In this document: positions 2,319-26,949 of the stretch, in pieces
Numbering within the stretch: position 1 is the stretch's first letter
Layout of the letters: each line of letters starts with the position of its first letter
Assembly: GCA_045543375.1 (NCBI GenBank)
Contig: JAZQMI010000032.1
Span: 1-50,938, forward strand
From: Eubacteriales bacterium
GTDB taxonomy: Bacteria; Bacillota; Clostridia; Oscillospirales; CAG-272
Length of the DNA stretch: 50,938 nucleotides
Direction: 5' to 3'
Position numbers and translations under genes: made by a program
Notes under the pieces: model-generated
Databases searched by the model: none
What the model saw: only the letters and a program-made list of their open reading frames with translations
Told to the model about the DNA's origin: nothing

Positions 2319-2452
2319 AACCGGTTCTCCTTTGAATTGATTTATATAACATTGTCATATTGCGGACGACCGTCGTGGCACGCCGCATCGTGTATCTGCG
2401 TTACGGGTGCGACCCATACCGCCCTCAAGCGTCAGCGCTTCGTCGTTGAGTA

Positions 2453-3730: not shown

Positions 3731-3747
3731 AATGTCCTCCGATAGAG

Positions 3748-3777
3748 AAAGGGCGAGGCGACATCGCCTCGCCCTTT
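3748..3777 (-). terminator. hairpin between the cupin and FAD-oxidoreductase genes (terminator or attenuator)
   Basis: AAAGGGCGAGGCG acat CGCCTCGCCCTTT, a perfect 13-bp stem. On the minus strand it is followed by TTTCTCT and then the RBS of the downstream gene. Confidence 0.6.
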
Positions 3778-3822
3778 GATGGGTTCAGTATATCACAACT
3801 TTCTCCTGATGTCAAGGGGAAA

Positions 3823-4605: not shown

Positions 4606-4651
4606 GATGATATTCCTTTCTGCGGGACATTGCCCGTTCTTTGTGCTTTTT

Positions 4652-4982
4652 AGGGGAAACCCCACTTGTGGTTTCCCCTCTTTTTCGCTCCGCGAAAAAT
4701 TCACCCTTTCGGGCGCCTTGGAAGCATAGGGGATTTCGCCCTCTGCGGAGGGCGACGAGGGCTTCGCGCCCTCGACCGCGCCACCTTTTGAAAAAGGTGG
4801 ACGAAAACTCTTTATAACACACTGGCCATGTGTCTGAACTTCGACACCAGACTTTTGGGGCAGGGGCCCCAATTCACCCTTTGATGTTGTTGGGATAAAG
4901 GATGGGAGCTATCGAGCCAATTTTCCTTTTTTCCAAAAAGTTTTTGGGGGTCGTAGGGGACTTTTTTCAAAAAGTCCCCTAC
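4652..4982. repeat. array of eight back-to-back short GC-rich palindromic hairpins (REP/insulator-like)
   Basis: Stems at 4652-4679, 4681-4699, 4736-4755, 4756-4774, 4781-4800, 4855-4872, 4933-4947 and 4953-4982. The 12-mer AATTCACCCTTT occurs twice (4699 and 4871). Confidence 0.8.
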
Positions 4983-5000
4983 ATCCGTTTCCCTCGTTCC

Positions 5001-7211: not shown

Positions 7212-7213
7212 CT

Positions 7214-8146: not shown

Positions 8147-8147
8147 T

Positions 8148-10034
8148 TTATCTTTCCTCGAGCTCTACCCACTCGCCGCTCTCGGCGCTCTTGTACATCA
8201 TATCCAGTACGTAGCGCGAACGGCTACCTGCCTCGGGACCGACGACCAGTGCGTCGCCCGTGCGCAGGCAGTAAGCAAAGTTATCTGCACCCTGGTTCCA
8301 TTCTCTTTGTACGGGGTACGGAGATTCCTCCGTCCACTTGCCGTCCTCGCGCGACCAATAAATGTGCTCGCCCTCGGGACCGCCCGAGGTCAGAAGGTAT
8401 GCACCCTTGTCGCCGTACACCTCAAGACGGGTGTACCAGGTGTTGACGGGGTAAGAGGTGGTCGACGAGAAGCGGGCAACAAAGCCGTTCTCATACTGCC
8501 ACTCGGTGATACCGTAGTCGTCGACCTCGATGTCGTGCGTCTGGGTGTAGGTCGAGCAGCGAACCTTCTTAGGCATGCCGAAGCAGGTCAGCAGACGGTC
8601 GATCTCGTGGATACCCTGATTGCTCAGTGCTCCGCCGCCGTCCATAGCCCAGGTGCCTCTCCAGCCGCCGTTCTCCTTGAAGTAGGAGGCGGGACGCTTG
8701 ATGTTCAAAATCATATTGGCGCTCTTGAGCTTACCGAAGTAACCGCCCTCGACAGCCTTCTGCAGCTCCTTGAGCGGGCCGCGGAAATGCAGGTCGAAGT
8801 CGCAGCCGAGCAGCAGTCCCTTTTCCTTGGCAAAGGCAATGAGCTCGTCGCAACGCTGATAGTTGACGTCCATGGGCTTGGTCAGAAGGACGTTCTTGCC
8901 GGCCTCCAGGCACTGCTTTGCCACGCGGCAGTGATCGCCCGTGGGAACGACGACGTACATGACCTCAACGGCGGGGTCGTTCAAAAAGGTGTTGATGTCG
9001 GTGCTATAGGGAACCTTGAACTGCTCGCCGATCTCCTTGGCGCGCGCCTCGTTGATGTCGCAAACGCCATACAGCTTGATACCGTTGGTGTTGGTGATCT
9101 GTGCGCAGCGGTTCTTACCCATACCAAGGCCGACGACGACCATGTTGACGGGGTTATCGTTGTAGGGACGGTCGAACATCTGGACGGGCGAGAGCGCCGA
9201 CTTCATATCGCCGGGGGCGCTGGCGGGCCAGACGCGCTTGATGTAATCGTAGCACTTCTTGGTTGCCTGCTCACCGTTCAGGCCTACGCCTGCGGGAACG
9301 TGCGTTTCGATCGACACAGGCATATCCTTGCCCGTGACGAGCGCGCCGCGAAGCACTCTCTCCCACGGAACCTTCTTGCCCTCGACCTCAGCAAGCACAC
9401 CGCGCGACTTGACGTGCAGCATGTTGGCATATTTCAGGCACTTGGTGAAGTAGTCCACGCAGTCGCCCTTGGCCTCGGGCAGAATCTCAAACATATTGGA
9501 AACGTCCCAAGCCATACCCCAGCCGGGCACGTTGAGCTGCTCCAGTACGGTGATGACCTCGTCGGGCGTCTGACCGCAGTTTTCAATGCCGAGGATCAGA
9601 CCGGCCTCCTGCGCACGCTTAGCAAAGGGATAGAACATTTCCAGCACCTGAGCCTGTGCGTCGGGGCGCATGGCCAGCTCGCCGCACTTGGGATCGTACT
9701 GGTCGTGCTGCCAGAAGTTGAACGAACGGACCAGACGGCAATCCAGCACGTCGGCCGCGCGGATGATACCCTCAAGCTTTGCCATTTCCTTGGCAACGCC
9801 GTCAGGGCCGGGCAGGTGAACCTTGCACAGCGAAGACTGGATAACACCCGTCTTCAGACCAAGGCTGTCGAGCTGTGCACGAAGAGCCTTGAGTTCGTCC
9901 ATGGTCAGATTTTCAATGGGCTTACCGAACACTCTGGAACGGAAGTCCACGTACTTCATCCCCCAAGAAGCAATGGTAGGCAGGATCTCGGTAACTTCTC
10001 TTTGAAGCTCGTCAGTAAACACGGATACGTACAT
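8148..10034 (-). CDS. fusion protein: xylose-isomerase-like TIM barrel (aa 1-270) + Gfo/Idh/MocA NAD(P) oxidoreductase (aa 296-628)
   Basis: The N-terminal half has the sugar-phosphate isomerase/epimerase pattern (..LGIENCG.., ..SIETHVP..). The C-terminal half begins with Rossmann VNMVVVGLGMGKNR and has ..EAGKNVLLTKPM.. typical of Gfo/Idh/MocA. RBS AAGGAGAA. Its stop is 1 nt from the activase start. Confidence 0.8.
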   Translation of the reverse strand: MYVSVFTDELQREVTEILPTIASWGMKYVDFRSRVFGKPIENLTMDELKALRAQLDSLGLKTGVIQSSLCKVHLPGPDGVAKEMAKLEGIIRAADVLDCRLVRSFNFWQHDQYDPKCGELAMRPDAQAQVLEMFYPFAKRAQEAGLILGIENCGQTPDEVITVLEQLNVPGWGMAWDVSNMFEILPEAKGDCVDYFTKCLKYANMLHVKSRGVLAEVEGKKVPWERVLRGALVTGKDMPVSIETHVPAGVGLNGEQATKKCYDYIKRVWPASAPGDMKSALSPVQMFDRPYNDNPVNMVVVGLGMGKNRCAQITNTNGIKLYGVCDINEARAKEIGEQFKVPYSTDINTFLNDPAVEVMYVVVPTGDHCRVAKQCLEAGKNVLLTKPMDVNYQRCDELIAFAKEKGLLLGCDFDLHFRGPLKELQKAVEGGYFGKLKSANMILNIKRPASYFKENGGWRGTWAMDGGGALSNQGIHEIDRLLTCFGMPKKVRCSTYTQTHDIEVDDYGITEWQYENGFVARFSSTTSYPVNTWYTRLEVYGDKGAYLLTSGGPEGEHIYWSREDGKWTEESPYPVQREWNQGADNFAYCLRTGDALVVGPEAGSRSRYVLDMMYKSAESGEWVELEER

Positions 10035-10160
10035 GATGTTTTCTCCTTTTCATTTTTTCATTTTTCATCGACTTATGTTTACATATTTCCATACACAATT
10101 ATTATATTGTTAAATGCGTTACAAATATATGACTTTTTTCTATAAAAATGAAACATTTTT

Positions 10161-10193
10161 ATGTTTTTGGGATGTTTTTGGGATGTTTTTGAT
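10161..10193. repeat. three tandem 11-bp units ATGTTTTTGGG (third copy degenerate), helically phased T-tracts
   Basis: ATGTTTTTGGG ATGTTTTTGGG ATGTTTTTGAT read directly, located in the divergent control region between the GRE operon and the SBP gene. Confidence 0.8.
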
Positions 10194-10291
10194 GAAGATA
10201 GAACGTTATATATGAAAAGCAACCGCGTTTCCCAATCAAATACGTGGTATTTTTCTATCATTTGTTTTAGAAATATCACAAAATAATCATA

Positions 10292-10320
10292 TTGACTTTT
10301 GAGAATATTTGTATTATAAT
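10292..10320 (+). promoter_or_regulatory. sigma-A promoter of the solute-binding protein gene
   Basis: TTGACT (10292-10297), 17-nt spacer, TATAAT (10315-10320). Confidence 0.7.
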
Positions 10321-10330
10321 GTATGGTGAA

Positions 10331-10355
10331 GAATGATTTCGTGAAAAAATCATTC
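10331..10355 (+). promoter_or_regulatory. 9-bp inverted repeat at the transcript start (operator or 5'-UTR hairpin)
   Basis: GAATGATTT - 7 nt - AAATCATTC, starting about 10 nt after the -10 box. No T-run follows, so it is not a terminator. Confidence 0.45.
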
Positions 10356-10381
10356 AAAAAGAGATAATGGAGGATAGTAGC

Positions 10382-11905
10382 ATGAAAAGATTGCTCACCC
10401 TGTTGCTGGCAGTGATGATGATCGCATCCGTATTTGCTTTCGTCGGCTGTGGCAACGACACACCCAACCCCGACCAGCCCGGTCAGCCCGACCAGCCCGG
10501 CACCACCGATCCTGCCACGCCCGGTAGCTCGGATCAGCCTGTCGGCGACGGTATTGACTACATCACGCAGGTCGAAGTAGAAAACTTCAACAATGCATGG
10601 ATCACCATCCTTTGCCGTGAGGACAAGGAGTACGAGATGTACACCGAAGAGGATGCCGCCGCTCTGGTCGATCAGGCCGTTTACGCTCGTAACAACCGCG
10701 TAGCTGACCTGTTCAAGGTTCAGATCGAAACGCATCCCGTTGCAGGTACCTGGGAGCAGCAGCAGACCTACATTCAGGCTCTGGCTCAGTCGGTTTCTGC
10801 CGGTGACGACGCTTATCAGATCGCCGCTACGCACACGGCTTACAACTCCAACTTGACCATTCAGGAGCAGTACTACGATCTGCGCACGCTGGGCAACGCC
10901 ATCAACCTGGACGCCGCTTGGTGGTCGCAGTCGTTCAATGAGAACTGCACCGTTTACGACAAGCTGTTCTTCACCACCGGTGACCTTGCCCTGACCATGT
11001 GGGAGGGTATGTACGCCGTATACTTCAACAGAAAGCTTGCTACCGACTACGGTGTCGGCGATCTGTATCAGATGGTCCGCGACAAGGAGTGGACGATCGA
11101 GACGCTGACCGAGCTCACCGCAGGTCTGTATCAGGACAACGGTGATGACACCATGGGTCCCGAGGATACCTACGGTCTGCTGATCAACCGTCACGCAATG
11201 CGCGTATTCCTGACCACCTGCCAGCTTCCCATCTGCCAGCGTACGACGGACGGCGGCTACAAGCTGACCCTCATGGACGAGGAGCACATTGATAAGACCA
11301 CGACCGTATACGATAATCTTTACGATCTGATCTATGAGAACGATGGTACTTACGATTCCCAACTGCAGGACGGCGACTACACCGAGATGAACGAGATCTT
11401 CACCGCAGGCCGCTCGCTGTTCATGATGGGTGAGCTTCGCGTCACGCCCTCTCTCCGCGCCGCTGATATGGAGTTCGGTATCCTTCCCTTCCCCAAGTAC
11501 GACGAGGAGCAGGAAGAGTACTACGCTCACACCTACGACGGTCTGTCTTCCTTCGCTATCCCGCTGTCCGCTAAGGATCCCGCCATGTGCGCTAAGATCC
11601 TGGACGCTATGGGTGCAGAAAACAAGACTTCCGTTATCCCCGCTTACAACGAGATCGTGCTTGACGGTCGTGTAGCTCAGGACGGCGATTCCCGCGAGAT
11701 GCTGGGTATCATCCGTGACAACCTGTACTTCGACTTTGGTTTCGTTTACTCCAACACCATGGGTACTTCGGGCGTTTCCGGTCCCTTCGCTCTGTACGGT
11801 GACGCACTGCGCAGAGGAAGCGAGTCCTTCATCTCCGAGTGGGATCAGTATGCAACTGCACTGGCTACCAACTTGGAGGACGTGCTGGCCAAGTTTGACC
11901 AGTAA
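10382..11905 (+). CDS. extracellular solute-binding lipoprotein (family 1 sugar ABC SBP, about 500-aa LplA/YtcQ-like class), orphan
   Basis: Start set at the ATG at 10382, 8 nt after GGAGG. Signal peptide with lipobox MKRLLTLLLAVMMIASVFAFVGC, then a Pro/Asp/Gln-rich linker. Size and composition fit large sugar SBPs. No permease genes are nearby. Confidence 0.75.
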   Translation: MKRLLTLLLAVMMIASVFAFVGCGNDTPNPDQPGQPDQPGTTDPATPGSSDQPVGDGIDYITQVEVENFNNAWITILCREDKEYEMYTEEDAAALVDQAVYARNNRVADLFKVQIETHPVAGTWEQQQTYIQALAQSVSAGDDAYQIAATHTAYNSNLTIQEQYYDLRTLGNAINLDAAWWSQSFNENCTVYDKLFFTTGDLALTMWEGMYAVYFNRKLATDYGVGDLYQMVRDKEWTIETLTELTAGLYQDNGDDTMGPEDTYGLLINRHAMRVFLTTCQLPICQRTTDGGYKLTLMDEEHIDKTTTVYDNLYDLIYENDGTYDSQLQDGDYTEMNEIFTAGRSLFMMGELRVTPSLRAADMEFGILPFPKYDEEQEEYYAHTYDGLSSFAIPLSAKDPAMCAKILDAMGAENKTSVIPAYNEIVLDGRVAQDGDSREMLGIIRDNLYFDFGFVYSNTMGTSGVSGPFALYGDALRRGSESFISEWDQYATALATNLEDVLAKFDQ

Positions 11906-11920
11906 TTCCCGAACATATTG

Positions 11921-11952
11921 CGAGGGTGCACTGCGGTGCACCCTCGTTTTTT
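11921..11952 (+). terminator. rho-independent terminator
   Basis: CGAGGGTGCAC tgcg GTGCACCCTCG followed by TTTTTT. Confidence 0.85.
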
Positions 11953-12127
11953 GTTGCATTGATTCCCTTCGTTTTACGGCAGCTTGAATTTGCACTATTT
12001 TTTCTTGATTTTTTTGTTTAAAATCGGATTTTTTTATACTTTGCTATCGCCGTTTATCGTACCATGGGCGTTTGACACTATTTTTTAAATTATTTCATTT
12101 GAAATTAAAGTTTTTGATACTATATTA

Positions 12128-12156
12128 TTGACATTTATCGCAATATATGGTATAAT
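12128..12156 (+). promoter_or_regulatory. consensus sigma-A promoter of the AraC-family gene
   Basis: TTGACA (12128-12133), 17-nt spacer ending in TGG, TATAAT (12151-12156). Confidence 0.7.
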
Positions 12157-12230
12157 ATATAAAATTCAATCTATTTCTTTACATATATCCAATAAAAATA
12201 GTGTTTTCTTAAGATTTCAGTTTTCGTAAA

Positions 12231-13133
12231 ATGGAGGGGACGACGCTTATGGAAGATTTTTACCTGGAACGGAGATTGCGTATCTTCACGGATAGCGATC
12301 CCATCACGTTCGCATACAAAACGTCTTACGACGTTCCGTCGATTCACAATCTGCATATTCACCACAACTACGAGTTGTATTTTTATATTGAGGGTGACGC
12401 CGATTACATCGTCAACAATGCTTATTATAAGCTGCACCGTGGCGACGTTATGATCATCAGCCCCAATGAAACACATATGCTGGTACTCAAAAAGCCGTGT
12501 CAGTACACTCGCTTTTATATGGTATTCCCGCCTAACGTGTTCATCAACCACATCATCAACCCACTCCAGACGCTGCTGCGCCGCACGACGGGTGGCTCTG
12601 CCAAGCTGACACTGACTCCCGATATGTGGGATCGCGTATACGGCATGATGCAGGACATTCTTCGCGTTTGCCGCGACGACCCCGATGATTCGGGCGAGCT
12701 TCTGCACACCAAGATCTACGCCATGCTGCTGCAACTGTTGTGCTCGTTGAGCGAAAAAACCACTTCGGTGCAGTCGGTCGGCGACCAGTTCGGTGCGGCA
12801 CATCTGCCCGGCCCCATGCGCGAGGCCATGGCTTACATTGAAACGCACCTGACGCAAAACATCACGGTGCGCGAGATTGCCGAGGCCATTCATATCTCTC
12901 CGCCTTATCTGTCCTCGATCTTCCGCAAGCACATGGGCGTGCCGCTGGTCACCTATCTGCAAACGCGCAAGATCGTGCTCGCCAAGCAAATGCTGGAGGA
13001 GGGGCGGTCGGTCACCTACGCCTGCTATGAGAGCGGATTTTCGGATTGCTCGTATTTCATTCGCATCTTCAAGCGTCATCTCGGCATGACGCCGCTGCAA
13101 TACCGCAATTCCTTCCGCAACTCGGAAAAATAA
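12231..13133 (+). CDS. AraC family transcriptional regulator (N-terminal cupin sensor + C-terminal double HTH)
   Basis: N-terminus has an AraC-type cupin (HIHHNYELYFYIEGDADY...HRGDVMIISPNETH). C-terminus has the HTH_18 pattern (IAEAIHISPPYLSSIFRKHMG ... ACYESGFSDCSYFIRIFKRHLGMTPLQYR). The start could instead be the ATG at 12249. Confidence 0.9.
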   Translation: MEGTTLMEDFYLERRLRIFTDSDPITFAYKTSYDVPSIHNLHIHHNYELYFYIEGDADYIVNNAYYKLHRGDVMIISPNETHMLVLKKPCQYTRFYMVFPPNVFINHIINPLQTLLRRTTGGSAKLTLTPDMWDRVYGMMQDILRVCRDDPDDSGELLHTKIYAMLLQLLCSLSEKTTSVQSVGDQFGAAHLPGPMREAMAYIETHLTQNITVREIAEAIHISPPYLSSIFRKHMGVPLVTYLQTRKIVLAKQMLEEGRSVTYACYESGFSDCSYFIRIFKRHLGMTPLQYRNSFRNSEK

Positions 13134-13135
13134 TC

Positions 13136-13172
13136 AAAAAGCATCACGGACTTTGCGTCCGTGATGCTTTTT
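13136..13172. terminator. bidirectional terminator between convergent genes
   Basis: AAAAAGCATCACGGAC tttgc GTCCGTGATGCTTTTT, a 16-bp stem that includes an A-run and a T-run. Confidence 0.85.
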
Positions 13173-13173
13173 C

Positions 13174-16170
13174 TTATTCCTTGGCAAACGCCTCGTTGAG
13201 CATGCGTGCAATGTTCCGCATGCGCTCGGCGTCGACTTTGACCGCTTGGCGGTCGTAGGTAACAAGACCGTTGACCTCGTCCTCGACGTCGCTGAGCTGT
13301 GTCAGCACAAGCGCGCAGAGATTGGTATTGCGCAATGCGGGCACAATCTGTTCGCCGTACAGGTGCTCCAGAGCCGTGATCAGCTCGTCTGTGCTGTGAT
13401 AGGTCGCATAGCCGTAGCTTGCATCAAGATTGAAAATATGACCGTCCACGCCAAGACAATAGCCGCCAAATTCGGACAGCACGATCGGGAGCGTTTGATT
13501 TGATCTGAGGCGAACGGGCTTGAAATAAACGTGCTCACTTTGAACGTCGCTGCGTCGGGGTCTGAACCAGCCCGATGCGCTGTCCCAGATGCGCGTCGGA
13601 TCAAGCAGCTTCATTTCATCGTAGATGCGCGCGGTATCGTACTGTCCCCAGCCCTCGTTAAAAATGGTGTAGTAACAGACGCAGGGACTGTTGTACAGCA
13701 GATTAACCGTTTCCTTGGCCGCACCTTCAAAGGCGGCGCGGCGGCGCGGACTTGCGTGATGTGCAATGCCACGTTTGAAGGCAACGGTCGGCAGCGCGGT
13801 GTCGATCAGAAACGAATAGTTGCCGCTGTTGACCATGTCCTGGAACACGGACATGCCCAAGAGATCGCAATAGTAATAGAACAACGCAGGCTCGATCTTG
13901 ATGTGCTTGCGCAGCATGTTAAAGCCCAGCGACTTGGCCGTTTGAATATCAAAGCGGTAACCCTCGGGATCAGCGGGCAGATAGATGCCGTCGCTGAAAT
14001 AGCCCTGATCGAGCAGGCCGTGGAACAGATAGGGCTTACCGTTGAGCGCGGTCACGGGACCGTTATTTGTATCAACGACCGTGACGGTGCGCAAGGCGAA
14101 ATAGGACTCGACTCTGTCCTCACCGCACACGAGCGTGAAGCGGTAGAGATAGGGGTGCTCGGGCGACCAGAGGTGTACCTCGTCGGGTGCGAGCGTGAAC
14201 ACGTCACCCTCGTAGCAGTATTCACGATCCCCTGCCTCGGTATGCAGCACGATCGTCTTTTGCGCCGTGCCTCCCGTCGTTTCCACCGTCACGCACTCAG
14301 TCGACGGCGTCAAACGCAAAGAGCGGATATGCTCGGCGGGCAACGCTTCCATCCAGACCGTTTGCCAGATGCCGCTGGTGGGCGTGTACCACATGCCGCC
14401 GCGACGCTCGCGCTGCTTGCCGTAGGGCAGTTCCCGATCAAGCGCGTCCTGCACGCGGACGGTCAGCGTGTTTTCTCCCTCGCGCCACGCGCTTGTCACG
14501 TCAATCGAAAAAGGATGATAGCCACCCTCGTGCTCACCGACGGGCGTGCCGTTCAAGCATACCCGGGCAATCTGATCGACCGCGCCAAAGTGCAGCATCA
14601 GCCGCTTGCCCTCACCAAAAAATCCGTCGGGCAACGTGACCGTGCGCTCGTAAACAAGAATATCTTGTTTTTCAAAGCGGCACTCAATGCCCGAGGCGCG
14701 GGATTCGGGCGGAAACGGCACGAGAATATCACCCACACACTCGGTCTGCCCCTCACGCTCAAGAGCGAGTGACCAGCGACCGTTCAGGCACAGGTAGGAA
14801 TTGCGCTTCATTTGCGGACGGGGATATTCCTGCCACGGAATGTCGCCCATGTTCTGTTCAAATGGCGTGCCGAGCGACACCGTACGGGGCATTTTTTTGT
14901 GTCCGATCCACCACACGAGCAGCACGACGGGCACGGCGGCAAGCAATGCTGCCACGAAGATATTTTGATTGGGTACGAACGAGGTCGTTCCGTCGCCGTT
15001 GACCACAACGTCAGCGTTGCGCAGCACCGTCTTACCGATCCACGGACCGATGACACCGGGCAGCAGCACCTGCGAGCAAATGCGTACGCCTTGCAGCATA
15101 CCCGAACGCCCAGCGGGGGTCAGATCGCGAATGAGGGCACCGAACACGGCCATGCCGCAAAGGTAGCCGCACATCATGAGCAGCGAGCCAACGAACACAA
15201 GTACCGTTCCACGGAACAGCATGAGCAGCACGTAACCGACCATCAAAGACGCCAGTGCCGGCATGACCGCGCCCGAAAATCCGCGCTTGTCGTACACGTG
15301 CCCCCAGAAAAAGGTAGCGACCGACGCAAGCACGATGGCGGGTGCCATGATGAGCACGTAATCCTTCATGCCCAGCGACACCTCGTAATAAAGAATGAGG
15401 TAAGGCATGAAGATCTGAATGGAAATATTAAATACGACAAAGGTGATCAAGGCGCGGTAGAGCGTGGGGTTTTTGCGCACCGTCGAGGGGCGGAAGCCGT
15501 AAACGATGCCCTGCCAATAGGGCACGTCACTTTTTCTGATGGGCGGCTCTTTGATCAAAAACAGCCCTGCGATGCCAACGACAAGCGTCAGCGCGCCGAT
15601 GATGGCAAAGATATACGACCAGCTTTGGCTTTCGTCCAGATTGAACGCCATAAAGCCACCAAACACACAGAGAATGGCGACCAGCGGCATCATGGCGTTG
15701 ATACCCTCGGCCGCGCCGCGGTTGCCCTCATCGGTCATGTCGGTCAGCCAGGCGTTGAAGGCGGCGTCATTGGCGGTCGAGCCGAAGAAGGTCATGACGC
15801 AGTCCATGATGATGACCAAGGAAACGCCCACGGCAGCCGCCGACACGGTCATGGGAACGAGCGGCTCGATGACGTCAAGTCGGATAAACACAAAGCTGAA
15901 AATCGAGATGCCCCAGAGGATATAACCGCCGCACATGAACAGCTTGCGCTTGCCCACGCGGTCGGACAGCGCGCCCATGAGCACCGTCGTCAGCGTGGCT
16001 GCCACGGCGCTGGCGGCAACCATGGCGGAAATATCCGATGGAGTTGCGTTGAACATCTTATAGATAAAGACGTTGAAATACATGTTTTCCACGACCCAGG
16101 CGATCTGACCCATCAACGAAAAGACGGTCAGTGCGCACAAAAATCGCGGCGATAGCTTGCTTTTGCTCAT
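13174..16170 (-). CDS. fusion protein: GPH/MFS-type glycoside transporter (aa 1-425, about 12 TM) + glycoside hydrolase family 2 (aa 440-998)
   Basis: One uninterrupted 998-aa ORF. The N-terminal half is hydrophobic and MFS-like (..GALSDRVGKRKLF..). The C-terminal half has a GH2 sugar-binding region (LHFGAVDQIARVCLNGTPVGEHEGGYHPFSIDVT), acid/base IFNEGWG and a nucleophile-like LSEFGG. RBS AAAAGGAGAAG. Confidence 0.8.
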   Translation of the reverse strand: MSKSKLSPRFLCALTVFSLMGQIAWVVENMYFNVFIYKMFNATPSDISAMVAASAVAATLTTVLMGALSDRVGKRKLFMCGGYILWGISIFSFVFIRLDVIEPLVPMTVSAAAVGVSLVIIMDCVMTFFGSTANDAAFNAWLTDMTDEGNRGAAEGINAMMPLVAILCVFGGFMAFNLDESQSWSYIFAIIGALTLVVGIAGLFLIKEPPIRKSDVPYWQGIVYGFRPSTVRKNPTLYRALITFVVFNISIQIFMPYLILYYEVSLGMKDYVLIMAPAIVLASVATFFWGHVYDKRGFSGAVMPALASLMVGYVLLMLFRGTVLVFVGSLLMMCGYLCGMAVFGALIRDLTPAGRSGMLQGVRICSQVLLPGVIGPWIGKTVLRNADVVVNGDGTTSFVPNQNIFVAALLAAVPVVLLVWWIGHKKMPRTVSLGTPFEQNMGDIPWQEYPRPQMKRNSYLCLNGRWSLALEREGQTECVGDILVPFPPESRASGIECRFEKQDILVYERTVTLPDGFFGEGKRLMLHFGAVDQIARVCLNGTPVGEHEGGYHPFSIDVTSAWREGENTLTVRVQDALDRELPYGKQRERRGGMWYTPTSGIWQTVWMEALPAEHIRSLRLTPSTECVTVETTGGTAQKTIVLHTEAGDREYCYEGDVFTLAPDEVHLWSPEHPYLYRFTLVCGEDRVESYFALRTVTVVDTNNGPVTALNGKPYLFHGLLDQGYFSDGIYLPADPEGYRFDIQTAKSLGFNMLRKHIKIEPALFYYYCDLLGMSVFQDMVNSGNYSFLIDTALPTVAFKRGIAHHASPRRRAAFEGAAKETVNLLYNSPCVCYYTIFNEGWGQYDTARIYDEMKLLDPTRIWDSASGWFRPRRSDVQSEHVYFKPVRLRSNQTLPIVLSEFGGYCLGVDGHIFNLDASYGYATYHSTDELITALEHLYGEQIVPALRNTNLCALVLTQLSDVEDEVNGLVTYDRQAVKVDAERMRNIARMLNEAFAKE

Positions 16171-16188
16171 TTTCTTCTCCTTTTATGC

Positions 16189-16220
16189 AAAAGCCCTGCC
16201 AAAGAGCGGCACGGGCTTTT
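16189..16220 (-). terminator. terminator after the nucleotidyltransferase gene
   Basis: On the minus strand: AAAAGCCCGTGCC gctcttt GGCAGGGCTTTTGCAT. One bulged base in the stem. Confidence 0.6.
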
Positions 16221-16231
16221 GTTATCATTGA

Positions 16232-17425
16232 TTATTCGCCTTGCGCGTTGAAATTCTGGGGTAATCCAAGCTGATCGAACAGCTCCGATACGTGTCCTAC
16301 CTGCTCACCCGACATTTGCGCATTGAGCGCGAGCTCGTGCACGCCGCCACGCAATTTTCCGCGCCGAATGCCACGGGCAAGGCGGCGCATCTGATAGAAA
16401 AAGGTCAGATATCTATGTCCCTTGAGCGCGGGATAGGTATGAACGAGCTGCTCGTACGGCATAAAAATACGGGATAATGCATAACCAAGCTTGCCCTTGC
16501 CCTTGGCATGCTGGATGGCAACAAAGTTCACTTTATCGCCGTAGGTGCCACCCTGCAAGACGAAGTTAGCCATGTCACGTCCAAGCGCGTCGAGCGCGCC
16601 GTCCGAAAACCAGGCAAGGCACACCTTGCGCGCCGTGTTGGCAAAGATTGAAAGCCCGGTGCTTGTCAGCAACTCTTGCAAAGCGGCTCGGTCGAGCTGC
16701 TCGTTTTGTTCAAGCAGCCAAAGATCCATAAAGGTGCGTATGCCGCAGCCGCCGCCGGCAAAATGCTTGGCCATGTGGGCGACGTGATAGAAATAGAACA
16801 TCTCGTCCGTCATGGCGCGACGGTAGCAACAGCCCTCGATCTCGCGGGTATACGACCAGACCTCGCGCAGCAGAGCCGATGCAGGACCGATGCGATCATC
16901 CTCGATCAGGTCGTGGTGCAGCTCAATGTGCACGCCCGAAGGCGAATACAGCGAAATGTCATGGTCGGTTTCATACGACTGCTTGACGTATCCGAGCTGC
17001 TCCGTCAACAATGCTTCGGCATGTGGAATGTCTTGCTTGTGGACGAGCAGATCGATATCGCTGCTCGTGCGCATCCAAGGCTCGGGATACAGCGCACGAA
17101 GCACCGCCCCTTTGAGCGGCAAATGGATAATGCCCCCCTGCTCGAGCACGCGACAACTTTCCGCAAGCTCGATGCGCTGGTGCTCATAACGGAACACCGA
17201 AAGCATTTGCGCCTTTTGCAACTTGGCTCCCGCCTCGCTCGCCGTATTCAGCGCACCCGCACGATACAGCGCGTAGGATACGATATGTGCCACGTCGTGA
17301 TGATAGGCGGCAGCATACAGTTGCCCCATTTGCTGCTCGTCTTGCGGCACGCACGCGCACACCTCGCCACGCAATGCCGCGCGACAAAGGGCGATCATTA
17401 TATTGGCAACGGATGTTGGTTGCAT
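16232..17425 (-). CDS. uncharacterised nucleotidyltransferase family protein (NTP_transf_5-like)
   Basis: Motif HLPLKGAVLRALYPEPWMRTSSDIDLLV matches my memory of the uncharacterised nucleotidyltransferase family. I chose the ATG at 17425 (RBS GAAAGGAAGGAAA) over the tracked GTG at 17428. Confidence 0.55.
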   Translation of the reverse strand: MQPTSVANIMIALCRAALRGEVCACVPQDEQQMGQLYAAAYHHDVAHIVSYALYRAGALNTASEAGAKLQKAQMLSVFRYEHQRIELAESCRVLEQGGIIHLPLKGAVLRALYPEPWMRTSSDIDLLVHKQDIPHAEALLTEQLGYVKQSYETDHDISLYSPSGVHIELHHDLIEDDRIGPASALLREVWSYTREIEGCCYRRAMTDEMFYFYHVAHMAKHFAGGGCGIRTFMDLWLLEQNEQLDRAALQELLTSTGLSIFANTARKVCLAWFSDGALDALGRDMANFVLQGGTYGDKVNFVAIQHAKGKGKLGYALSRIFMPYEQLVHTYPALKGHRYLTFFYQMRRLARGIRRGKLRGGVHELALNAQMSGEQVGHVSELFDQLGLPQNFNAQGE

Positions 17426-17443
17426 CACATTTCCTTCCTTTCT

Positions 17444-18214
17444 TTATTCTCCGAGTGGATGGAAAAATATTCGCTTACGTCCGCCATCGTCATACAGCAC
17501 GACGGGCTGCATACCAAAGACGCGGACGGGGATATCGGTATCAAGCAGTTCGTTCGGCGTACCGACAAAGCCGATCGTTCCATCGCAAACGACGATCAAT
17601 CGGTCGGCGTATTGCATGGCACACGAGAGGGAATGTGTCGCGGCAAGTACCGCTTTTTTCCTGTCGCGGCACAAGCCCTTCAGCAGCCCGAAAAAGTGGT
17701 GTTCATGATCGGCGTCCATAAAGGCGGTCACCTCGTCAAGCAGCATGAGCGGTGTATTTTGCGACAGCATCATGCCCAGATACGCCCGACGCGCCTCACC
17801 GCCCGACAGACAATCAAGATATGCGTCTGCCAGATCGGTCAATTCGGCGTCGTGCAAAGCGGCTGCGATCGCACGCGTGCAGTCGGGTGTTGACGTGCCG
17901 TTCAAGGATTGATACGGGCTGAGCCCCATCGCAACAAGCTCTCTTACCTTGATGTGCGGCAGCGCGGGCTGCTGCTGCATGAGTGCTACGCGGCGGGCAC
18001 GCTCGCGTGGGGAAAGGGAGAGTAAGTCCTGCCCGTCAAGGCGCACGCTTCCGCGGCAAGGCAAAAGCCCGCAGACAGTATGAAGCAGCGTGGACTTTCC
18101 ACTGCCGTTGCGCCCGATCACGGCAACGAATTCGCCTCTTTCAAGGCCAAAAGAAACGTCATGAAGAACTTCTTTTCGCTCATATCCGAGCGAGAAAATC
18201 TGACATTGCAGCAC
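17444..18214 (-). CDS. ABC transporter ATP-binding protein, iron-chelate/cobalamin (FecE/BtuD) type
   Basis: Walker A GRNGSGKSTLL, signature LSGGEARR, Walker B LMLLDEVTAFMD. GTG start at 18214, 6 nt after AGGAGG. Confidence 0.85.
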   Translation of the reverse strand: MLQCQIFSLGYERKEVLHDVSFGLERGEFVAVIGRNGSGKSTLLHTVCGLLPCRGSVRLDGQDLLSLSPRERARRVALMQQQPALPHIKVRELVAMGLSPYQSLNGTSTPDCTRAIAAALHDAELTDLADAYLDCLSGGEARRAYLGMMLSQNTPLMLLDEVTAFMDADHEHHFFGLLKGLCRDRKKAVLAATHSLSCAMQYADRLIVVCDGTIGFVGTPNELLDTDIPVRVFGMQPVVLYDDGGRKRIFFHPLGE

Positions 18215-22308: not shown

Positions 22309-23051
22309 CAAATGTCGGTTTTTACCTTCCCGTGCACGTGACGGTACAGCTCAAGCGGCAGATACAGCAGCGCGATCACGACAATGGCAATGACGGGAAA
22401 TCCGACCAGATGCGAACCGCACAGCTCCTGGGCAAGCTTCAGTGGCGCGATGTTGTCATGCTTCATCAAAAACATGTAGTTGGTACCCAGCCACACGTTG
22501 ATGCCGTACACGGGCACGGCAAGCGCGACGAGAAGCAACAGACACTTCCACACCTCGCGCAACTTGGGGCGAATGTCACCGCCAACGGTCAGTACCAAAG
22601 GATAGAGTGCCAGCAGAATGTGCACCGTGAAGCTGTGCAGGTGACTGAAATTCAGCACGGGCAGCTTGGTCCAGGTGGGCAGCAGCAACGCGGCGATGGC
22701 AGAGGGGAGCCCGACCGTATAAAGAAAATGATCGAGCGTTTTGGACGGTCTTACGGCATGAATGGCGATCAGCACGATGTTGATGCTACAAAGGTGAAGC
22801 GGCAGGTAGTTGACGTTATAGCGATCGCCGATCACAAGGCAGACGACCTTGAACAGCTCGTCCGCGACGATGAGTGCCGCCATAATATAACGGAAGCGAC
22901 GGCGACCGATCTCGCCAAGGCGGCGATACAGCAGACAAAGTACGACTGCCAAAGCGGCAAACAGCCCGAGCCAGCAAAGGTGCGTCGTGTCAAAATGAGA
23001 AAAGCCCAGCCCTTTGGGAATGTCACCCGTGATATGCCAAAAATACTCCAT
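22308..23051 (-). CDS. YwaF/TIGR02206-like integral membrane protein
   Basis: 247 aa, about 7 TM segments, with the hallmark NYLPLHLCS motif as I recall for this family. Lies 15 nt downstream of the repressor gene. Confidence 0.55.
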   Translation of the reverse strand: MEYFWHITGDIPKGLGFSHFDTTHLCWLGLFAALAVVLCLLYRRLGEIGRRRFRYIMAALIVADELFKVVCLVIGDRYNVNYLPLHLCSINIVLIAIHAVRPSKTLDHFLYTVGLPSAIAALLLPTWTKLPVLNFSHLHSFTVHILLALYPLVLTVGGDIRPKLREVWKCLLLLVALAVPVYGINVWLGTNYMFLMKHDNIAPLKLAQELCGSHLVGFPVIAIVVIALLYLPLELYRHVHGKVKTDI

Positions 23052-23066
23052 TGTCCTGTCCTCTCA

Positions 23067-23666
23067 TCAAATGTCAAATTTGGCGCGCAGCTCGACCACG
23101 CGTCCAAAGATGCGAAGCGGTGTTTTTTTGAGTTGATCGCACGAAAAATGCATGGGCGCGTAGTCGGGATTGAACGAGGTCAGCGTCACGCCCTGCGCAT
23201 CTTGCGTGAATTTTTTGCAAGTGGCACGCACCTCGCCGTCTTCCTCCAGCAGAACTACGACGATATCGCCGTTCTCGGCCGTCGGCTGCACGCGGACAAT
23301 GACCACGTCGCCTTCCATCATACGGGGCTGCATGCTGTCACCGTGAATGCGCAGCGCTGCAAAATCACCCGTACGCGCCAGTGCGGTGGGGATCTCCTCG
23401 TAATCCTCGATATCGGTCAGCGCCTCGATGGGCTGTCCTGCCGCTACGTCACCGCGCACGGAAATGCGCACGCTCGCACGCGGCGAGAACAGCGCTTCGG
23501 GCTCAAGCGAGAAATACGCCGCGATCTTGTCAAGCGACCTCTTACTCGGCAGTGTGCCCTGTTTCCATTTGGTCACCGATCCCGCCGCAATGTTCAGCTC
23601 ACGCACCACCTCAGACGGCGTCATACCCGCCGCACGGCACAGTGCGCAGAAATTATCCCAAAACAT
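23067..23666 (-). CDS. XRE-HTH + S24 peptidase repressor (phage CI / LexA-like, autocleavable)
   Basis: Trimmed to the ATG at 23666 (RBS AGGAGAG). HTH is MTPSEVVRELNIAAGSVTKWKQG. Contains the VAAGQP cleavage-site-like motif, the catalytic GDSMQP Ser motif and a downstream Lys (TCKKF). Confidence 0.85.
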   Translation of the reverse strand: MFWDNFCALCRAAGMTPSEVVRELNIAAGSVTKWKQGTLPSKRSLDKIAAYFSLEPEALFSPRASVRISVRGDVAAGQPIEALTDIEDYEEIPTALARTGDFAALRIHGDSMQPRMMEGDVVIVRVQPTAENGDIVVVLLEEDGEVRATCKKFTQDAQGVTLTSFNPDYAPMHFSCDQLKKTPLRIFGRVVELRAKFDI

Positions 23667-23732
23667 AAAAGCTCTCTCCTTTTTCCACAAACTGGTCAAA
23701 AAAGTTGTTAAGGTACATTGGTGATAGCTCCG

Positions 23733-23755
23733 AAATTTCACCGTTGGTGAAATTT
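23733..23755. promoter_or_regulatory. perfect 10-3-10 palindromic operator
   Basis: AAATTTCACC GTT GGTGAAATTT, immediately upstream of the -35 box of the rightward promoter. Confidence 0.7.
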
Positions 23756-23759
23756 TATC

Positions 23760-23788
23760 TTGACATTTCACCAAAAGTGAATTATAAT
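23760..23788 (+). promoter_or_regulatory. consensus sigma-A promoter with a second operator in its spacer
   Basis: TTGACA (23760-23765), 17-nt spacer, TATAAT (23783-23788). The spacer contains TTTCAC CAAAA GTGAA, which shares the TTCAC/GTGAA arms with the upstream palindrome. Confidence 0.75.
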
Positions 23789-23903
23789 ATAAGAGCAACG
23801 CGCCAAAGAGCAATCATGTTTCGTGAATGCTCCGTCACAATATCGACAATATTTTATCACATTTCGGGGCATTCGTCAACCGTTTTTGAAAAAGGAGGAC
23901 AAC

Positions 23904-25568
23904 ATGCCACAAATTCACATTTCGGTGCGCGATAAGATCGCGCGCGCCGCACGGCGCACGCCGTGCATCGTATGCGGCAACGCCGACTACGAGGTCGTAT
24001 TTGACCTCGACAGCGAATGGGCTGTGCACGACCAAAAGATCGCACGCTTCATCTGGGGCGGTGCTTACTACGACGTGCCCTTCATGGGCAACATCTGTCC
24101 CGTGCCGACCGTGATCCACGCAAGTGAGGTCGAAGTGGGCGTGTACGCCGGAGATCTGCGCACGACCACACCTGCCACCATCGCCTGCCGCCGTTCGATC
24201 CGCGGTGAGCAATCCCTGCCCCTTCATGACGAGGCACTCGCAGAATACGAGCACCGCGCCGTCGAAGCGGCTGCCGTAGCGCAAAGTGCCGCGAGCGAGG
24301 CCGCAAAGACGGTCGGAAACTTGCAAGATGCGGTAAACGAGGCTAAAGCAGCCGCCGCGCAGGCAAGTGAAACCGGCGCACAGATCATGGACGCGACCGC
24401 ACAGGCCAATGCTGCCGCAGACAAGGCACAAAAAGCAGTAAGCTCCCTTCAGAACGCAGTCGAAGCCACCGTGCAGGCAAAAACCGAAGCACAGCAGGCC
24501 AAGACATTGGCAAACCAAGCCGCGCGTCTTGCCCAGCAAAGCGCCGAGAGCATCAACACCGACACAGAGAGTGCCCGGGCACACGCCGCACAAATGGTAG
24601 AGCATGCGGCTGCCACACGCACGCGCTACGCCTTTACCGTCGGGCAGCCGGACGAGTTGGAATTCATGACGCCCGAGTCGTGCGGTATTTACAACGACGT
24701 CGAAAAGCTGCGCTACAACGACAAGACGCTGTTCACCATCTACCGTTACCCTTTGACGGACAGCGCGCGCATCACAAGCGCACTCTGGCACGCACATCTG
24801 GCACAGCAGACGTTGCTTCAGGTGTCATCCGACGGCAAAACGTGGATCACGCTGCTCGACAACAGCTATCAGCAGATCGGTACGCAATACCATTACGAGC
24901 TGTGCGACGTGCTGGATCTGAGTGATGCCGACGCCCTTTACGTCAAGATCACCGATTCTGCTCCCAACGACGGATACGGCGGTGCCATTCTTGCGGATAT
25001 TCCCGTCACGCTGGATGTCACGCACGGTGCACTCGCCCCCTTCGCGTTGCCGCCGGTCAACAAGGAGGACGAGGGCTCCTACCTGCGCGTGATCGGCGGC
25101 CGCTGGGGCGTGGCAGACGCGACGGCACTCACCTCACGCGTGCGCACCTACTCGTTTAAGGTAAGCGAGCTCACCGAGAAAAAATATCTGCACGCCGATT
25201 CGACCGGCATTCTCAACGAGAGCTGCCGTTTCAACGATCGGACCGCCTTCACCCTTTACCATTATCACGTTGCCAATGCGGCGCTGGTGCGTCGCATCAC
25301 CTGGACGGCCACCGTAGGCCAACAGCTTCTTATCGAGTGCTCAACGGACAGAGAGAATTGGCGCACGCTGATCAACGTCGGCGCAAGCACTCTTGATTTT
25401 GAGCGCAAAACGTTCGATCTGACCGACAAGGTCGATCTGCTCGCCTTTGACGACGTTTATATCCGCATTTCGGATTCCGATCCGACCGACGGCTTTGGCG
25501 GCGCGCTTCGTGCACACACGGCAGTCAGTTTGCACGTGGAGCGCTGCGAGCCGCCCATTGGTATGTGA
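23904..25568 (+). CDS. phage tail-fibre / receptor-binding-like protein (N-terminal phage-type domain, Ala/Gln coiled coil, two tandem C-terminal beta-domain repeats)
   Basis: Trimmed to the ATG at 23904, 5 nt after AAAGGAGG. The N-terminus MPQIHISVRDKIA..CGNADYEVVFDLDSEW..VYAGDLRTTTPA resembles conserved prophage tail proteins of Clostridia, from memory. No signal peptide. Confidence 0.5.
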   Translation: MPQIHISVRDKIARAARRTPCIVCGNADYEVVFDLDSEWAVHDQKIARFIWGGAYYDVPFMGNICPVPTVIHASEVEVGVYAGDLRTTTPATIACRRSIRGEQSLPLHDEALAEYEHRAVEAAAVAQSAASEAAKTVGNLQDAVNEAKAAAAQASETGAQIMDATAQANAAADKAQKAVSSLQNAVEATVQAKTEAQQAKTLANQAARLAQQSAESINTDTESARAHAAQMVEHAAATRTRYAFTVGQPDELEFMTPESCGIYNDVEKLRYNDKTLFTIYRYPLTDSARITSALWHAHLAQQTLLQVSSDGKTWITLLDNSYQQIGTQYHYELCDVLDLSDADALYVKITDSAPNDGYGGAILADIPVTLDVTHGALAPFALPPVNKEDEGSYLRVIGGRWGVADATALTSRVRTYSFKVSELTEKKYLHADSTGILNESCRFNDRTAFTLYHYHVANAALVRRITWTATVGQQLLIECSTDRENWRTLINVGASTLDFERKTFDLTDKVDLLAFDDVYIRISDSDPTDGFGGALRAHTAVSLHVERCEPPIGM

Positions 25569-25580
25569 GGGGGTGAATGC

Positions 25581-25808
25581 ATGGACTACATCAAACGCAA
25601 ACTGACCTCACGCAAGCTGTGGATGTCCTTGGCGGGCTTTATTTCCTCGCTGATCGTCGCCTTTGACGGTTCGGCCGAGGTGGCGGAAACGGTCACAGGC
25701 TGCATCATGGCGGGCGCGACCGTCATCGCTTACGTGCTGGGCGAGGGGTTGATCGACCGTTCCGTCACGGTACCGGAGCAGACCGAGGAGGAGCAGAGCC
25801 AAATTTAA
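25581..25808 (+). CDS. putative holin (75 aa, 2 TM, acidic C-terminal tail)
   Basis: MDYIKRKLTSRKLWMSLAGFISSLIVAF...ATVIAYVLGEG, then ...EQTEEEQSQI. It starts 12 nt after the tail-fibre-like gene. The size, TM layout and charged tail are typical of holins. Confidence 0.5.
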   Translation: MDYIKRKLTSRKLWMSLAGFISSLIVAFDGSAEVAETVTGCIMAGATVIAYVLGEGLIDRSVTVPEQTEEEQSQI

Positions 25809-25873
25809 TTTTTATATTGAATATCGCAACAAACTGTGATATACTATATAAAAATATCTCTTGGAGGTTATGT

Positions 25874-26497
25874 ATGAGCGTTACTTCACAAGCATTCGAC
25901 CCCGCAGCGCTGTTTCGCATCGGATACGGGCTGTACGTTGTGACCTCAAACGACGGTCAAAAGGACAACGGGCTGATCGTCAATGCCGTCACGCAGGTGA
26001 CCAACACGCCCAACCGCATTGCCGTGACCATCAACAAAAGCTGCTATTCGCACGATACCATCAAGCGTACGGGCAAAATGAACGTCAACTGTCTGTCCGT
26101 TGAGGCACCCTTTGCCGTGTTTGAGGCGTTCGGCTTCCGATCGGGTCGCGACACAAACAAATTCGAAGGCTGCGCGCCGAAGCGATCGGCCAACGGTCTG
26201 GTCGTTTTGCCGCGCTATATCAACGCATACATTTCGCTCGACGTCGAGCAGTACGTTGATCTTGACACGCACGGCATGTTTATCTGCACGGTAAGCGAGG
26301 CAGCCGTGGTATCCGATCTGGAAACCATGACCTACACCTATTATCAGGATCACGTCAAACCTCGCCCCGAGCCTCAAAAGAAAAAGGGCTACGTATGCAA
26401 GATCTGCGGCTACGTTTACGAGGGCGACGAGCTGCCCGAGGATTTCGTTTGTCCTTGGTGCAAGCACGGCGCGGACGATTTTGAACCGCTCAAATAA
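25874..26497 (+). CDS. flavin reductase domain fused to rubredoxin (high-molecular-weight rubredoxin, Hrb-like)
   Basis: Start ATG at 25874 after GGAGG. Flavin-reductase-like N-terminus (GLYVVTSNDGQKDNGLIVNAVTQVT). C-terminal rubredoxin CKICGYVYEG...CPWCKHG. Confidence 0.8.
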   Translation: MSVTSQAFDPAALFRIGYGLYVVTSNDGQKDNGLIVNAVTQVTNTPNRIAVTINKSCYSHDTIKRTGKMNVNCLSVEAPFAVFEAFGFRSGRDTNKFEGCAPKRSANGLVVLPRYINAYISLDVEQYVDLDTHGMFICTVSEAAVVSDLETMTYTYYQDHVKPRPEPQKKKGYVCKICGYVYEGDELPEDFVCPWCKHGADDFEPLK

Positions 26498-26511
26498 CCG
26501 AATATAAAAGG

Positions 26512-26550
26512 CAACGGCTGCGAGAGCTTCGCAGCCGTTGCTGTTTTTTA
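26512..26550. terminator. bidirectional terminator between convergent genes
   Basis: GCAACGGCTGCGA gagct TCGCAGCCGTTGC followed by TGTTTTTT, with an A-run upstream. Confidence 0.85.
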
Positions 26551-26949
26551 TTTTTCGGTAAAAAATTCCACGTCCTCGCCGACGGGGCCAATGCAAAAGC
26601 CCAGACGGACGGGGTACGGGTGCTCGGGCGTGCCCAGCATCATGTCCTTGGGCTCGATGGTGATCCGGTAGCCTGCCGCGCGCACCGCCTCGATGCACGT
26701 GTCCACATCCTCGACGGCAAATGCCAGATGGCGCAGGGCGCCTGCGCCGAGCTCGTCGGGCGCGTTGGCAAACAGCTCGAGCTTGCCTGCACCCGTATCG
26801 ACCATAACGACGGGAGCGTCCTCGGTGCCCCAACGGCGCACGATGGGCATGCCCAGAATATCGTGATAGAAAGCGAGCAGCTTTTCAAATTTTTCAAGTC
26901 CCTTTGCCTTCAGGGCAATGTGATGGACGCCTGTGATCTTCGGTTTCAT
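26548..26949 (-). CDS. VOC / glyoxalase-family protein
   Basis: 133 aa. GVHHIALKA ... LRHLAFAVEDVD ... follows the glyoxalase/bleomycin-resistance/dioxygenase fold pattern. Confidence 0.75.
   Translation of the reverse strand: MKPKITGVHHIALKAKGLEKFEKLLAFYHDILGMPIVRRWGTEDAPVVMVDTGAGKLELFANAPDELGAGALRHLAFAVEDVDTCIEAVRAAGYRITIEPKDMMLGTPEHPYPVRLGFCIGPVGEDVEFFTEK

Follow-up and report, generated by a model that had tools for sequence, protein, structure and literature searches.

A conserved phage-derived cassette of repressor, fibre, and holin genes as a candidate domesticated operon in a gut bacterium

The 50,938-nucleotide (nt) stretch analysed here (∼51 kb of contig JAZQMI010000032.1 in assembly G000, which comprises 1.8 Mb and is 81% complete; the whole stretch is called the window) contains, among cellular genes, a cassette in which a repressor gene is divergent from a two-gene operon for a fibre and a holin-family protein (Table 1). 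Sequence comparison establishes all three genes as phage in origin, on the grounds of the family to which the N-terminal domain (N-domain) of the fibre belongs, its BppU-like fold, the gene order around its homologues, the location of holin homologues beside endolysin genes, and, in the related genome G007, an integrase beside the nearest paralogue of the repressor. On balance, we lean toward reading the cassette as what is left of a temperate siphophage, three genes that were fixed in the ancestor of at least three species and have been kept by selection as a repressor-switched operon, probably inducible by DNA damage. Domestication as such is well supported.

Orthologues of all three genes were detected in two of 40 relatives, G010 (on one contig) and G006 (on two short contigs), with identities of 64 to 67% for the repressor, about 50 to 59% for the fibre, and 71 to 77% for the holin-family protein; the other matches within the genus were paralogous C-terminal domains or more distant S24 proteins. 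These metagenome-assembled genomes (MAGs) are incomplete (73 to 81% complete). The ratios of nonsynonymous to synonymous substitution rates (dN/dS; Nei-Gojobori method) were 0.17 to 0.26 for the repressor, 0.14 to 0.33 for the fibre or its parts, and 0.18 to 0.32 for the holin, with values of 0.135 and 0.25 for flanking genes, a pattern that indicates purifying selection on all three genes in at least three species. Synonymous divergence (dS) of the cassette is similar to that of its flanks (for example, 1.0 to 1.1 between G000 and G006). A full prophage at this site in related genomes, which the original prediction had named as the sign of a simple remnant, was not seen; G010 and G006 carry exactly the same three genes. 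The left-hand neighbours are shared as well: in G010 the repressor gene adjoins an orthologue (66% identity) of the metallophosphoesterase gene of the window, and in G006 it adjoins a TMEM164 orthologue (67% identity). Among 13 genus genomes searched, the metallophosphoesterase was found in three, G000, G010, and G006 only, and these therefore form a subgroup. To the right of the holin gene, G006 and G010 share a membrane-anchored surface protein encoded on the opposite strand, whereas G000 has a flavin reductase.

The comparison of strains proposed in the original prediction joined the cassette to its flanks within the species, as bovine-gut metagenome contigs from two other studies span the TMEM164, repressor, fibre, holin, and flavin reductase genes. 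One of them (X2 record 9) covers positions 22555 to 26015 with 93 differences and no gaps, another (X1 record 4) covers positions 23178 to 26611, and no joint that skips the cassette is listed among the contigs of conspecific strains. A large protein collection held 13 further full-length fibre orthologues, 46 to 64% identical and of the same architecture. Across the 14 orthologues, mean pairwise identity is 67% for the N-domain, 60 to 67% for the domains other than the stalk, and 38% for the stalk, which varies in both length and sequence in their alignment (A1). Contigs of equal size (6877, 8856, 9088, 3868, and 3863) recur for fibre, holin, and repressor orthologues, which suggests five more complete cassettes; a further case, 16241, is doubtful, since the NCBI locus tags lie far apart. 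A family-wide search of 401 genomes (with seven of the window's genus besides G000, and apparently without G006 and G010) returned no further orthologue and gave partial matches only, in G007 and G114. When genome contigs were searched with the single fibre protein, nothing was found, and with A1 only the G010 and G006 contigs were recovered. The same alignment matched none of the viral contigs; among metagenome contigs it matched 11 loci, all of them N-domain relatives and none a full-length orthologue.

The spacer of 237 nt between the repressor and fibre genes carries what appears to be a phage-type switch. Its putative operator O1 corresponds to an inverted repeat (I5) with 100% complementarity. 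Both hexamers of the fibre-holin promoter are invariant in G000, G010, and G006, and O1 and O2 are conserved, whereas the rest of the spacer has diverged; from the candidate repressor promoter, the CGTCAA patch and a TAcAAT-like −10 element are kept in G010 and G006. The exact operator pattern occurs in the assembly at O1 and O2 only, and the repressor therefore appears, from this distribution, to be dedicated to the cassette locus. With one mismatch allowed, 10 further places were found versus 7 for a reversed-pattern control (both strands summed), and given this control count they were set aside as chance matches. The candidate repressor promoter likely drives the repressor gene, reading through the operators, which lie downstream of its start. 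The two promoters would stand face to face (window positions 23795 to 23880), with transcripts predicted to overlap by ∼50 nt, a layout reminiscent of the opposed lytic and lysogenic promoters found in some temperate phages.

The repressor had been described from its letters as an XRE-type helix-turn-helix (HTH)/S24 protein with VAAG and GDSM motifs, a description that database matches and residue conservation bear out. It matches the Pfam families PF00717 (Peptidase_S24; E value of 1.5e-26, residues 72 to 191) and PF13443 (HTH_26; 4e-6, residues 9 to 60), as well as the phrog_4 transcriptional repressors (1.8e-28), and no variation is seen at V74-A75-A76-G77, S111 (within GDSM), or K151 when five relatives are aligned with it. 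By analogy to LexA, we take A76-G77 to be the cleavage site and S111 and K151 to be the catalytic dyad. A canonical LexA was considered and rejected because the match to TIGR00498 (lexA) reaches 79 bits versus a cut-off of 111 and covers the C-terminal part only, because the N-terminus is an XRE-type HTH, and because the operator pattern is confined to this locus. The protein is best classed, by sequence, as a CI/HdiR-like repressor of the self-cleaving S24 type, for which cleavage is predicted. RecA is present in the assembly, and the LexA DNA-binding domain family (LexA_DNA_bind) was not found in it at 81% completeness. The assembly also encodes a further XRE-HTH and S24 protein of 198 amino acids (aa) that is 32% identical to the repressor of the window (G000:C129:16225-16791; L065, positions 1282 to 1878). 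Of the 13 genus genomes searched, 12 encode relatives of this second protein (31 to 35% identity), with G007 unclear, and it may be the LexA substitute of the lineage. A second, independent arrangement of a repressor beside a fibre was seen in L022 (G001:C49; positions 4225 to 7374), where an S24 repressor 48% identical to that of the window is divergent from a 161-aa protein consisting of the N-domain only, followed by a 626-aa pectate-lyase/beta-helix protein, with cellular genes to the left. That N-domain falls apart from the clade of fibre orthologues, at the end of a long branch, and the same 10-kb contig carries a recombinase fragment and another S24 repressor.

The label of a tail-fibre-like protein given to the 554-aa product is supported by the family to which it belongs, by its fold, and by where homologues lie in phage contigs. 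With a collection clustered to 50% identity as the target, its first ∼105 residues matched 3,092 representative proteins at E ≤ 1e-3 and 2,565 at E ≤ 1e-10. Among the best 150 matches, the domain is N-terminal in 146, in proteins of 141 to 1,118 aa, and internal or repeated in the other four, one of which is a protein of 2,889 aa. Relatives from a word search share the N-domain only and have SGNH esterase, pectate lyase, or collagen-like C-termini; judged by sequence, such swapping of C-termini is the modular pattern of receptor-binding proteins. In the sole phage record matched (MT835537), a homologue with 36% identity directly follows the genes for tape-measure, Dit-like, and Tal-like proteins, and N-domain homologues follow tape measure, Dit, and Tal in L045 and in the long metagenome contigs L055 and L058. 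The fibre gene in the window adjoins the repressor gene, and tail genes are not present. In a quick tree of 178 N-domains (proteins P0030, P0031, P0054, and P0071, with the domain internal or repeated, were left out), the 14 orthologues and the shorter P0029 and P0032 form one clade (SH-aLRT support of 93) nested among phage proteins.

The predicted fold agrees with this placement. A model of residues 1 to 129, built on 58 sequences, had a predicted local distance difference test score (pLDDT) of 88, and in a VIA comparison with 48,161 chains its top four hits were siphophage baseplates: 4v96 (TP901-1; Z of 9.1), 6v8i (80alpha; 8.6), 9m8o (NF5; 8.0), and 3uh8, the isolated N-domain of TP901-1 ORF48/BppU (Z of 8.0, root mean square deviation [rmsd] of 2.7 Å, 94 residues aligned); these Z values are near the background of the tool and were used only jointly with family and gene order. 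The top six Foldseek rows were likewise chains of 6v8i, 9m8o, and 4v96 (E values of 4e-3 to 2e-2), with 3uh8 at rank 21. Taken jointly, sequence family, gene position, and modelled fold identify the N-domain as a BppU-like siphophage anchor domain. No Pfam BppU_N match was obtained for fibre residues 1 to 130 at E ≤ 0.01, and for the whole fibre no Pfam or PHROG family was found, the sole match being a sub-threshold F5/8 type C domain.

Genes for such N-domain proteins also occur in other arrangements. They stand in tandem in L055 (10001-10666 and 12266-13258) and also in L052 and L053, a short N-domain-only gene preceding a long fibre gene, and in L055 a GtrB-like glycosyltransferase gene lies between fibre and holin. 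In L023 (G031:C113; positions 3723 to 6343), an N-domain protein, a 192-aa open reading frame (ORF), a phrog_199 holin, and an endolysin form a compact run divergent from a ClpP-like head-maturation protease gene, another short block of phage descent, here in a different family within the same order.

The model of the whole fibre (mean pLDDT of 75) places a helical stalk behind the anchor domain and, at the C-terminus, two repeats of ∼140 aa each. Their structure, which the original prediction had proposed to examine, is that of two galactose-binding-domain-like beta-sandwiches. With Foldseek E values of 1e-7 to 1e-5 they resemble neuropilin b1b2, the malectin-like ANX1, and Vip3 C-terminal domains, and with VIA Z values of 8 to 10 (single-domain rmsd of 2.4 to 3.2 Å over 107 to 127 residues) they resemble MAM, reelin, glycoside hydrolase family 2 (GH2) sugar-binding, and CBM8 domains. 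Paralogues of these head domains (33 to 37% identity) occur in many copies in giant proteins of 1,200 to 2,770 aa in this genome and the genus, and the two giant proteins that were scanned (1,731 and 1,732 aa) are pectate-lyase-like. From the modelled fold and these paralogues, the heads of the fibre are likely glycan binding. Runs of such giant genes are located on G000:C49 (L062, positions 1773 to 17870), C88, and C95, with products of 1,731, 1,732, and 1,751 aa and one ORF of 2,770 aa; they carry several copies of the ∼140-aa fibre-head beta-sandwich, which is unannotated. The absence of a signal peptide, part of the first description, was upheld by hydropathy: no signal peptide-like hydrophobic N-terminus was found, with a maximum Kyte-Doolittle value of 0.43 (19 residues) in the first 60 residues. 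A trimer prediction for three copies of fibre residues 1 to 240 scored 0.10 against a mark of 0.42, a result that counts neither way.

The 75-aa protein has two hydrophobic segments (residues ∼13 to 28 and 38 to 58), a basic N-terminus, and an acidic C-terminus; the two predicted transmembrane segments and the close spacing behind the fibre gene given in the original prediction both stand. It matched the phrog_297 holins weakly (E value of 0.0018; 1e-5 for the L058 homologue) and had no Pfam or NCBIfam match; a Pfam search at E ≤ 5 with the protein and four homologues gave chance-level rows only. The nearest ESM-Atlas clusters are viral, of 75 to 79 aa (scores of 0.96 to 0.97), one of them auto-named "holin family protein." A word search collected 303 clusters that have no Pfam domain and whose few source names are all "hypothetical protein." In both of two phage-like contigs (L055 and L058), homologues with 66 to 69% identity are encoded directly upstream of a phrog_894 endolysin gene, with a serine integrase gene further downstream of the endolysin. 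Family and the position of homologues mark the 75-aa protein as a probable phage holin, and hole formation is predicted. No lysin gene lies 3′ of the holin gene in G000, G010, or G006.

Table 1. Positions of the cassette genes, control elements, and predicted fibre domains in the window
Feature	Position	Strand	Description
Repressor gene	23067..23666	−	XRE-type HTH and Peptidase_S24, 199 aa
Operator O1 (putative)	23733..23755		Perfect 10-3-10 palindrome with half-site TTTCACC, abutting the fibre −35 on its upstream side
Fibre-holin promoter (predicted)	23760..23788	+	TTGACA-17-TATAAT, 12 of 12 consensus positions
Operator O2 (putative)	23765..23782		Imperfect copy of O1 between −35 and −10 of the fibre promoter
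Candidate repressor promoter	23851..23879	−	TTGACG-17-TAAAAT with TG, 10 of 12 consensus positions
Fibre gene	23904..25568	+	554 aa, preceded by GGAGG
Fibre residues 1-100	23904..24203	+	BppU-like N-terminal beta-sandwich, phage baseplate anchor domain (predicted)
Fibre residues 109-236	24228..24611	+	Coiled-coil-like helical stalk; helices 109-168 and 175-236 (model)
Fibre residues 238-378 and 408-548	24615..25547	+	Tandem galactose-binding-domain-like beta-sandwiches (model), pLDDT above 90
Holin-family gene	25581..25808	+	75 aa, first codon 12 nt behind the stop codon of the fibre gene

The cassette stands alone among cellular genes, as had been predicted, and the coordinates and strands of its three ORFs were verified. 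By Pfam scan, the neighbours on the left are a TMEM164 family protein and a metallophosphoesterase, and those on the right are a flavin reductase-rubredoxin and a glyoxalase. None of the 32 further ORFs in the window is phage-like (Pfam scan); they encode transporters and metabolic enzymes, and no integrase, replication, packaging, head, tail, or lysin gene is among them. A tRNA scan of the window and an Rfam search of positions 22800 to 26200 gave no match, and the direct repeats that an integrated element might have left at its borders were looked for and not found. The cassette matches no known defence family in PADLOC, no killing domain or immunity gene was found at it, and Pfam scans of the cassette and of the 32 further ORFs found no peptidoglycan-remodelling partner at the locus. 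The GC content at third codon positions of the fibre gene (0.69) is similar to that of the neighbouring genes.

In the scheme that we propose, a repressor dimer bound to O1 and O2 would hold down both the operon and its own gene. DNA damage would activate RecA, the repressor would cleave itself at Ala76-Gly77, and the operon would fire. The cell would then make the fibre, with its baseplate-type N-domain, helical stalk, and two glycan-binding heads, presumably as a trimer by analogy with BppU, while the holin would accumulate and perforate the membrane, permeabilising or lysing the producer. With no dedicated endolysin, the fibre would exit only via death or permeabilisation of the producer, perhaps aided by host autolysins. 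Such autolysins, triggered by collapse of the membrane, could replace the missing lysin. The released fibre may bind polysaccharide on sister cells, on other bacteria, or on plant or host glycans, and candidate pay-offs are a released lectin or adhesin, the blocking of phage receptors, and a component of a matrix. Between the two alternatives contained in the original prediction, a domesticated, damage-inducible release system fits best, and within it nonlytic export of the TcdE type gained no specific support.

Several points weigh against this scheme. A protein as large as the fibre is not expected to pass through intact peptidoglycan when no lysin acts, and the missing lysin is the weak point of the scheme. 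In the incomplete MAGs, a helper prophage or a lysin gene at another locus may have escaped detection. The dS values are near saturation (0.8 to 2.8), so that the dN/dS ratios are rough, and gene context was read for 2 of the 13 other fibre orthologues. The conservation of the baseplate anchor is not explained by the role of a free lectin and points to a phage partner. This last point leads to the main rival, in which the fibre is retained by the host for its effect on phage particles. The fibre would be built via its anchor domain into the virions of an induced or infecting phage, re-targeting them (fibre donation) or spoiling them, early lysis by the holin would be a defence resembling abortive infection, and either DNA damage or a phage antirepressor could trip the switch. 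In favour of this rival, no other part of the 14 orthologues is as well conserved as the N-domain although no baseplate gene is nearby, thousands of phage proteins in this habitat begin with the same domain, so that matching phages are plentiful, and repressor, operators, and holin are all conserved. Continued contact of the fibre with phage particles would account better for the conservation of the anchor domain. We nevertheless regard this explanation as unlikely overall: the N-domain is present once each in G000, G010, and G006, with no second N-domain protein in the assembly, none of 19 phage proteins from L023, L045, L055, and L058 (terminase, portal, tape measures, tail proteins, lysins, integrases, and a holin) matched the 81% complete assembly at E ≤ 1e-5, no phage partner is known, and PADLOC gave no defence-family match. 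A narrower form of it, a host-owned module that edits phage host range, seems rather unlikely; here strong selection would maintain the anchor domain because the fibre still docks onto virions, the prophages of neighbours, induced by the same DNA damage, or a related infecting phage would take up the fibre and be re-targeted or crippled by it, and the holin would set the moment at which the producer dies.

A slowly decaying prophage remnant without a function for the cell, intact by chance or because little time has elapsed, is the other alternative of the original prediction. Tail-fibre, holin, and repressor genes are common prophage leftovers, and the rest of the phage, lysin and integrase genes included, has disappeared, with no attachment-site repeats left. 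A neutral wreck is nevertheless disfavoured, and quite unlikely in our judgement, since the same three genes are found in G010 and G006, where all ORFs are open at dS values of ∼1 to 2.8 and evolve under dN/dS ratios like those of the flanks, since promoter and operators are conserved in a spacer that has otherwise diverged, and since the other 13 of the 14 fibre sequences are all full length. Selection might also act through addiction, with the holin as toxin and the repressor as antidote, so that loss or mutation of the repressor kills, the locus persists with no gain for the cell, and the fibre is a passenger. The repressor would indeed govern a consensus promoter that drives the gene for a membrane protein with lethal potential, and operators found nowhere else in the assembly mark it as a dedicated regulator, yet this accounts for selection on the repressor only; inactivation of holin or fibre would be harmless or favourable, and the low dN/dS ratios of both make such a selfish pair improbable. 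Finally, the cassette could belong to an active mobile element or phage satellite moving between genomes, as all three genes are of phage type and a related repressor in G001 adjoins a different N-domain gene near the recombinase fragment. This we hold to be very improbable: the window has no integrase, replication, or packaging genes, tRNA, or repeats, and the locus is fixed between syntenic flanks in three species, with a dS that matches these flanks.

If the cassette is a domesticated relic with a release function, it can be set beside several known systems. PblA and PblB of the Streptococcus mitis prophage SM1 are described as phage tail-fibre-type proteins without a signal peptide that serve as bacterial surface adhesins and that reach the cell wall only after the phage holin and lysin have permeabilised the cell (PMC2920869). 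The likeness has limits: SM1 is a complete inducible prophage in which the lysin is needed, whereas the cassette has three genes, no lysin, and vertical inheritance across species. BppU (ORF48 of TP901-1, with counterparts in 80alpha and NF5) shares the N-terminal beta-sandwich followed by a long helical stalk, and homologues of the fibre are encoded after Dit and Tal. The fibre differs from it in having no Pfam BppU_N match, in a sequence identity of 6 to 10% to the solved chains, in carrying two putative glycan-binding domains of its own where BppU holds a separate receptor-binding protein, and in that its gene is not in a phage. TcdE with the clostridial toxins and the Serratia chitinase system likewise have, as described, a phage-type holin beside a large signal-less cargo outside a prophage (PMC9527704, PMC6200909, and PMC8878733), and the pathogenicity locus PaLoc is reported to keep an endolysin remnant (PMC6200909). 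The holin families and regulators there are different, and the cassette has a structural protein of a phage as its cargo in place of a toxin or an enzyme.

Colicin-type operons and Clostridium perfringens BCN5 with UviB combine a DNA-damage switch, a large exported protein, and a small membrane protein that frees this cargo to the detriment of the producing cell. The cassette differs from them in that no killing domain or immunity gene was found and in that its regulator is a local CI-type repressor and not LexA of the cell. A study entitled "Pervasive domestication of defective prophages by bacteria" reportedly describes prophage leftovers kept under purifying selection, and the domesticated parts are usually tailocins, gene transfer agents, or single genes. 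A narrow literature search found no match in print for a trio of repressor, fibre, and holin with its own conserved switch. What selection has preserved would here be a minimal circuit, a phage switch wired to a receptor-binding protein and a holin without a lysin. Should DNA damage induce it, the circuit would parallel, in a Gram-positive setting and with different parts, the colicin logic of "cargo plus release gene," and it would offer a tractable case for asking what use a gut bacterium has for a free or host-owned phage fibre. In addition, two large families that match neither Pfam nor NCBIfam emerge, namely, the N-terminal anchor domain (more than 3,000 representative clusters) and the holin family (303 clusters).

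Two other ORFs of the window have unusual domain combinations. A 998-aa ORF (positions 13174 to 16170, minus strand) combines a major facilitator superfamily transporter (residues 32 to 376) with a GH2 sugar-binding domain (residues 503 to 607) and represents either an unusual fusion or two genes taken for a single one. A 628-aa ORF (positions 8148 to 10034, minus strand) combines in one chain a xylose-isomerase-like TIM barrel (AP_endonuc_2) and a GFO/IDH/MocA oxidoreductase; next to it are genes for a glycyl-radical enzyme and the corresponding activase.

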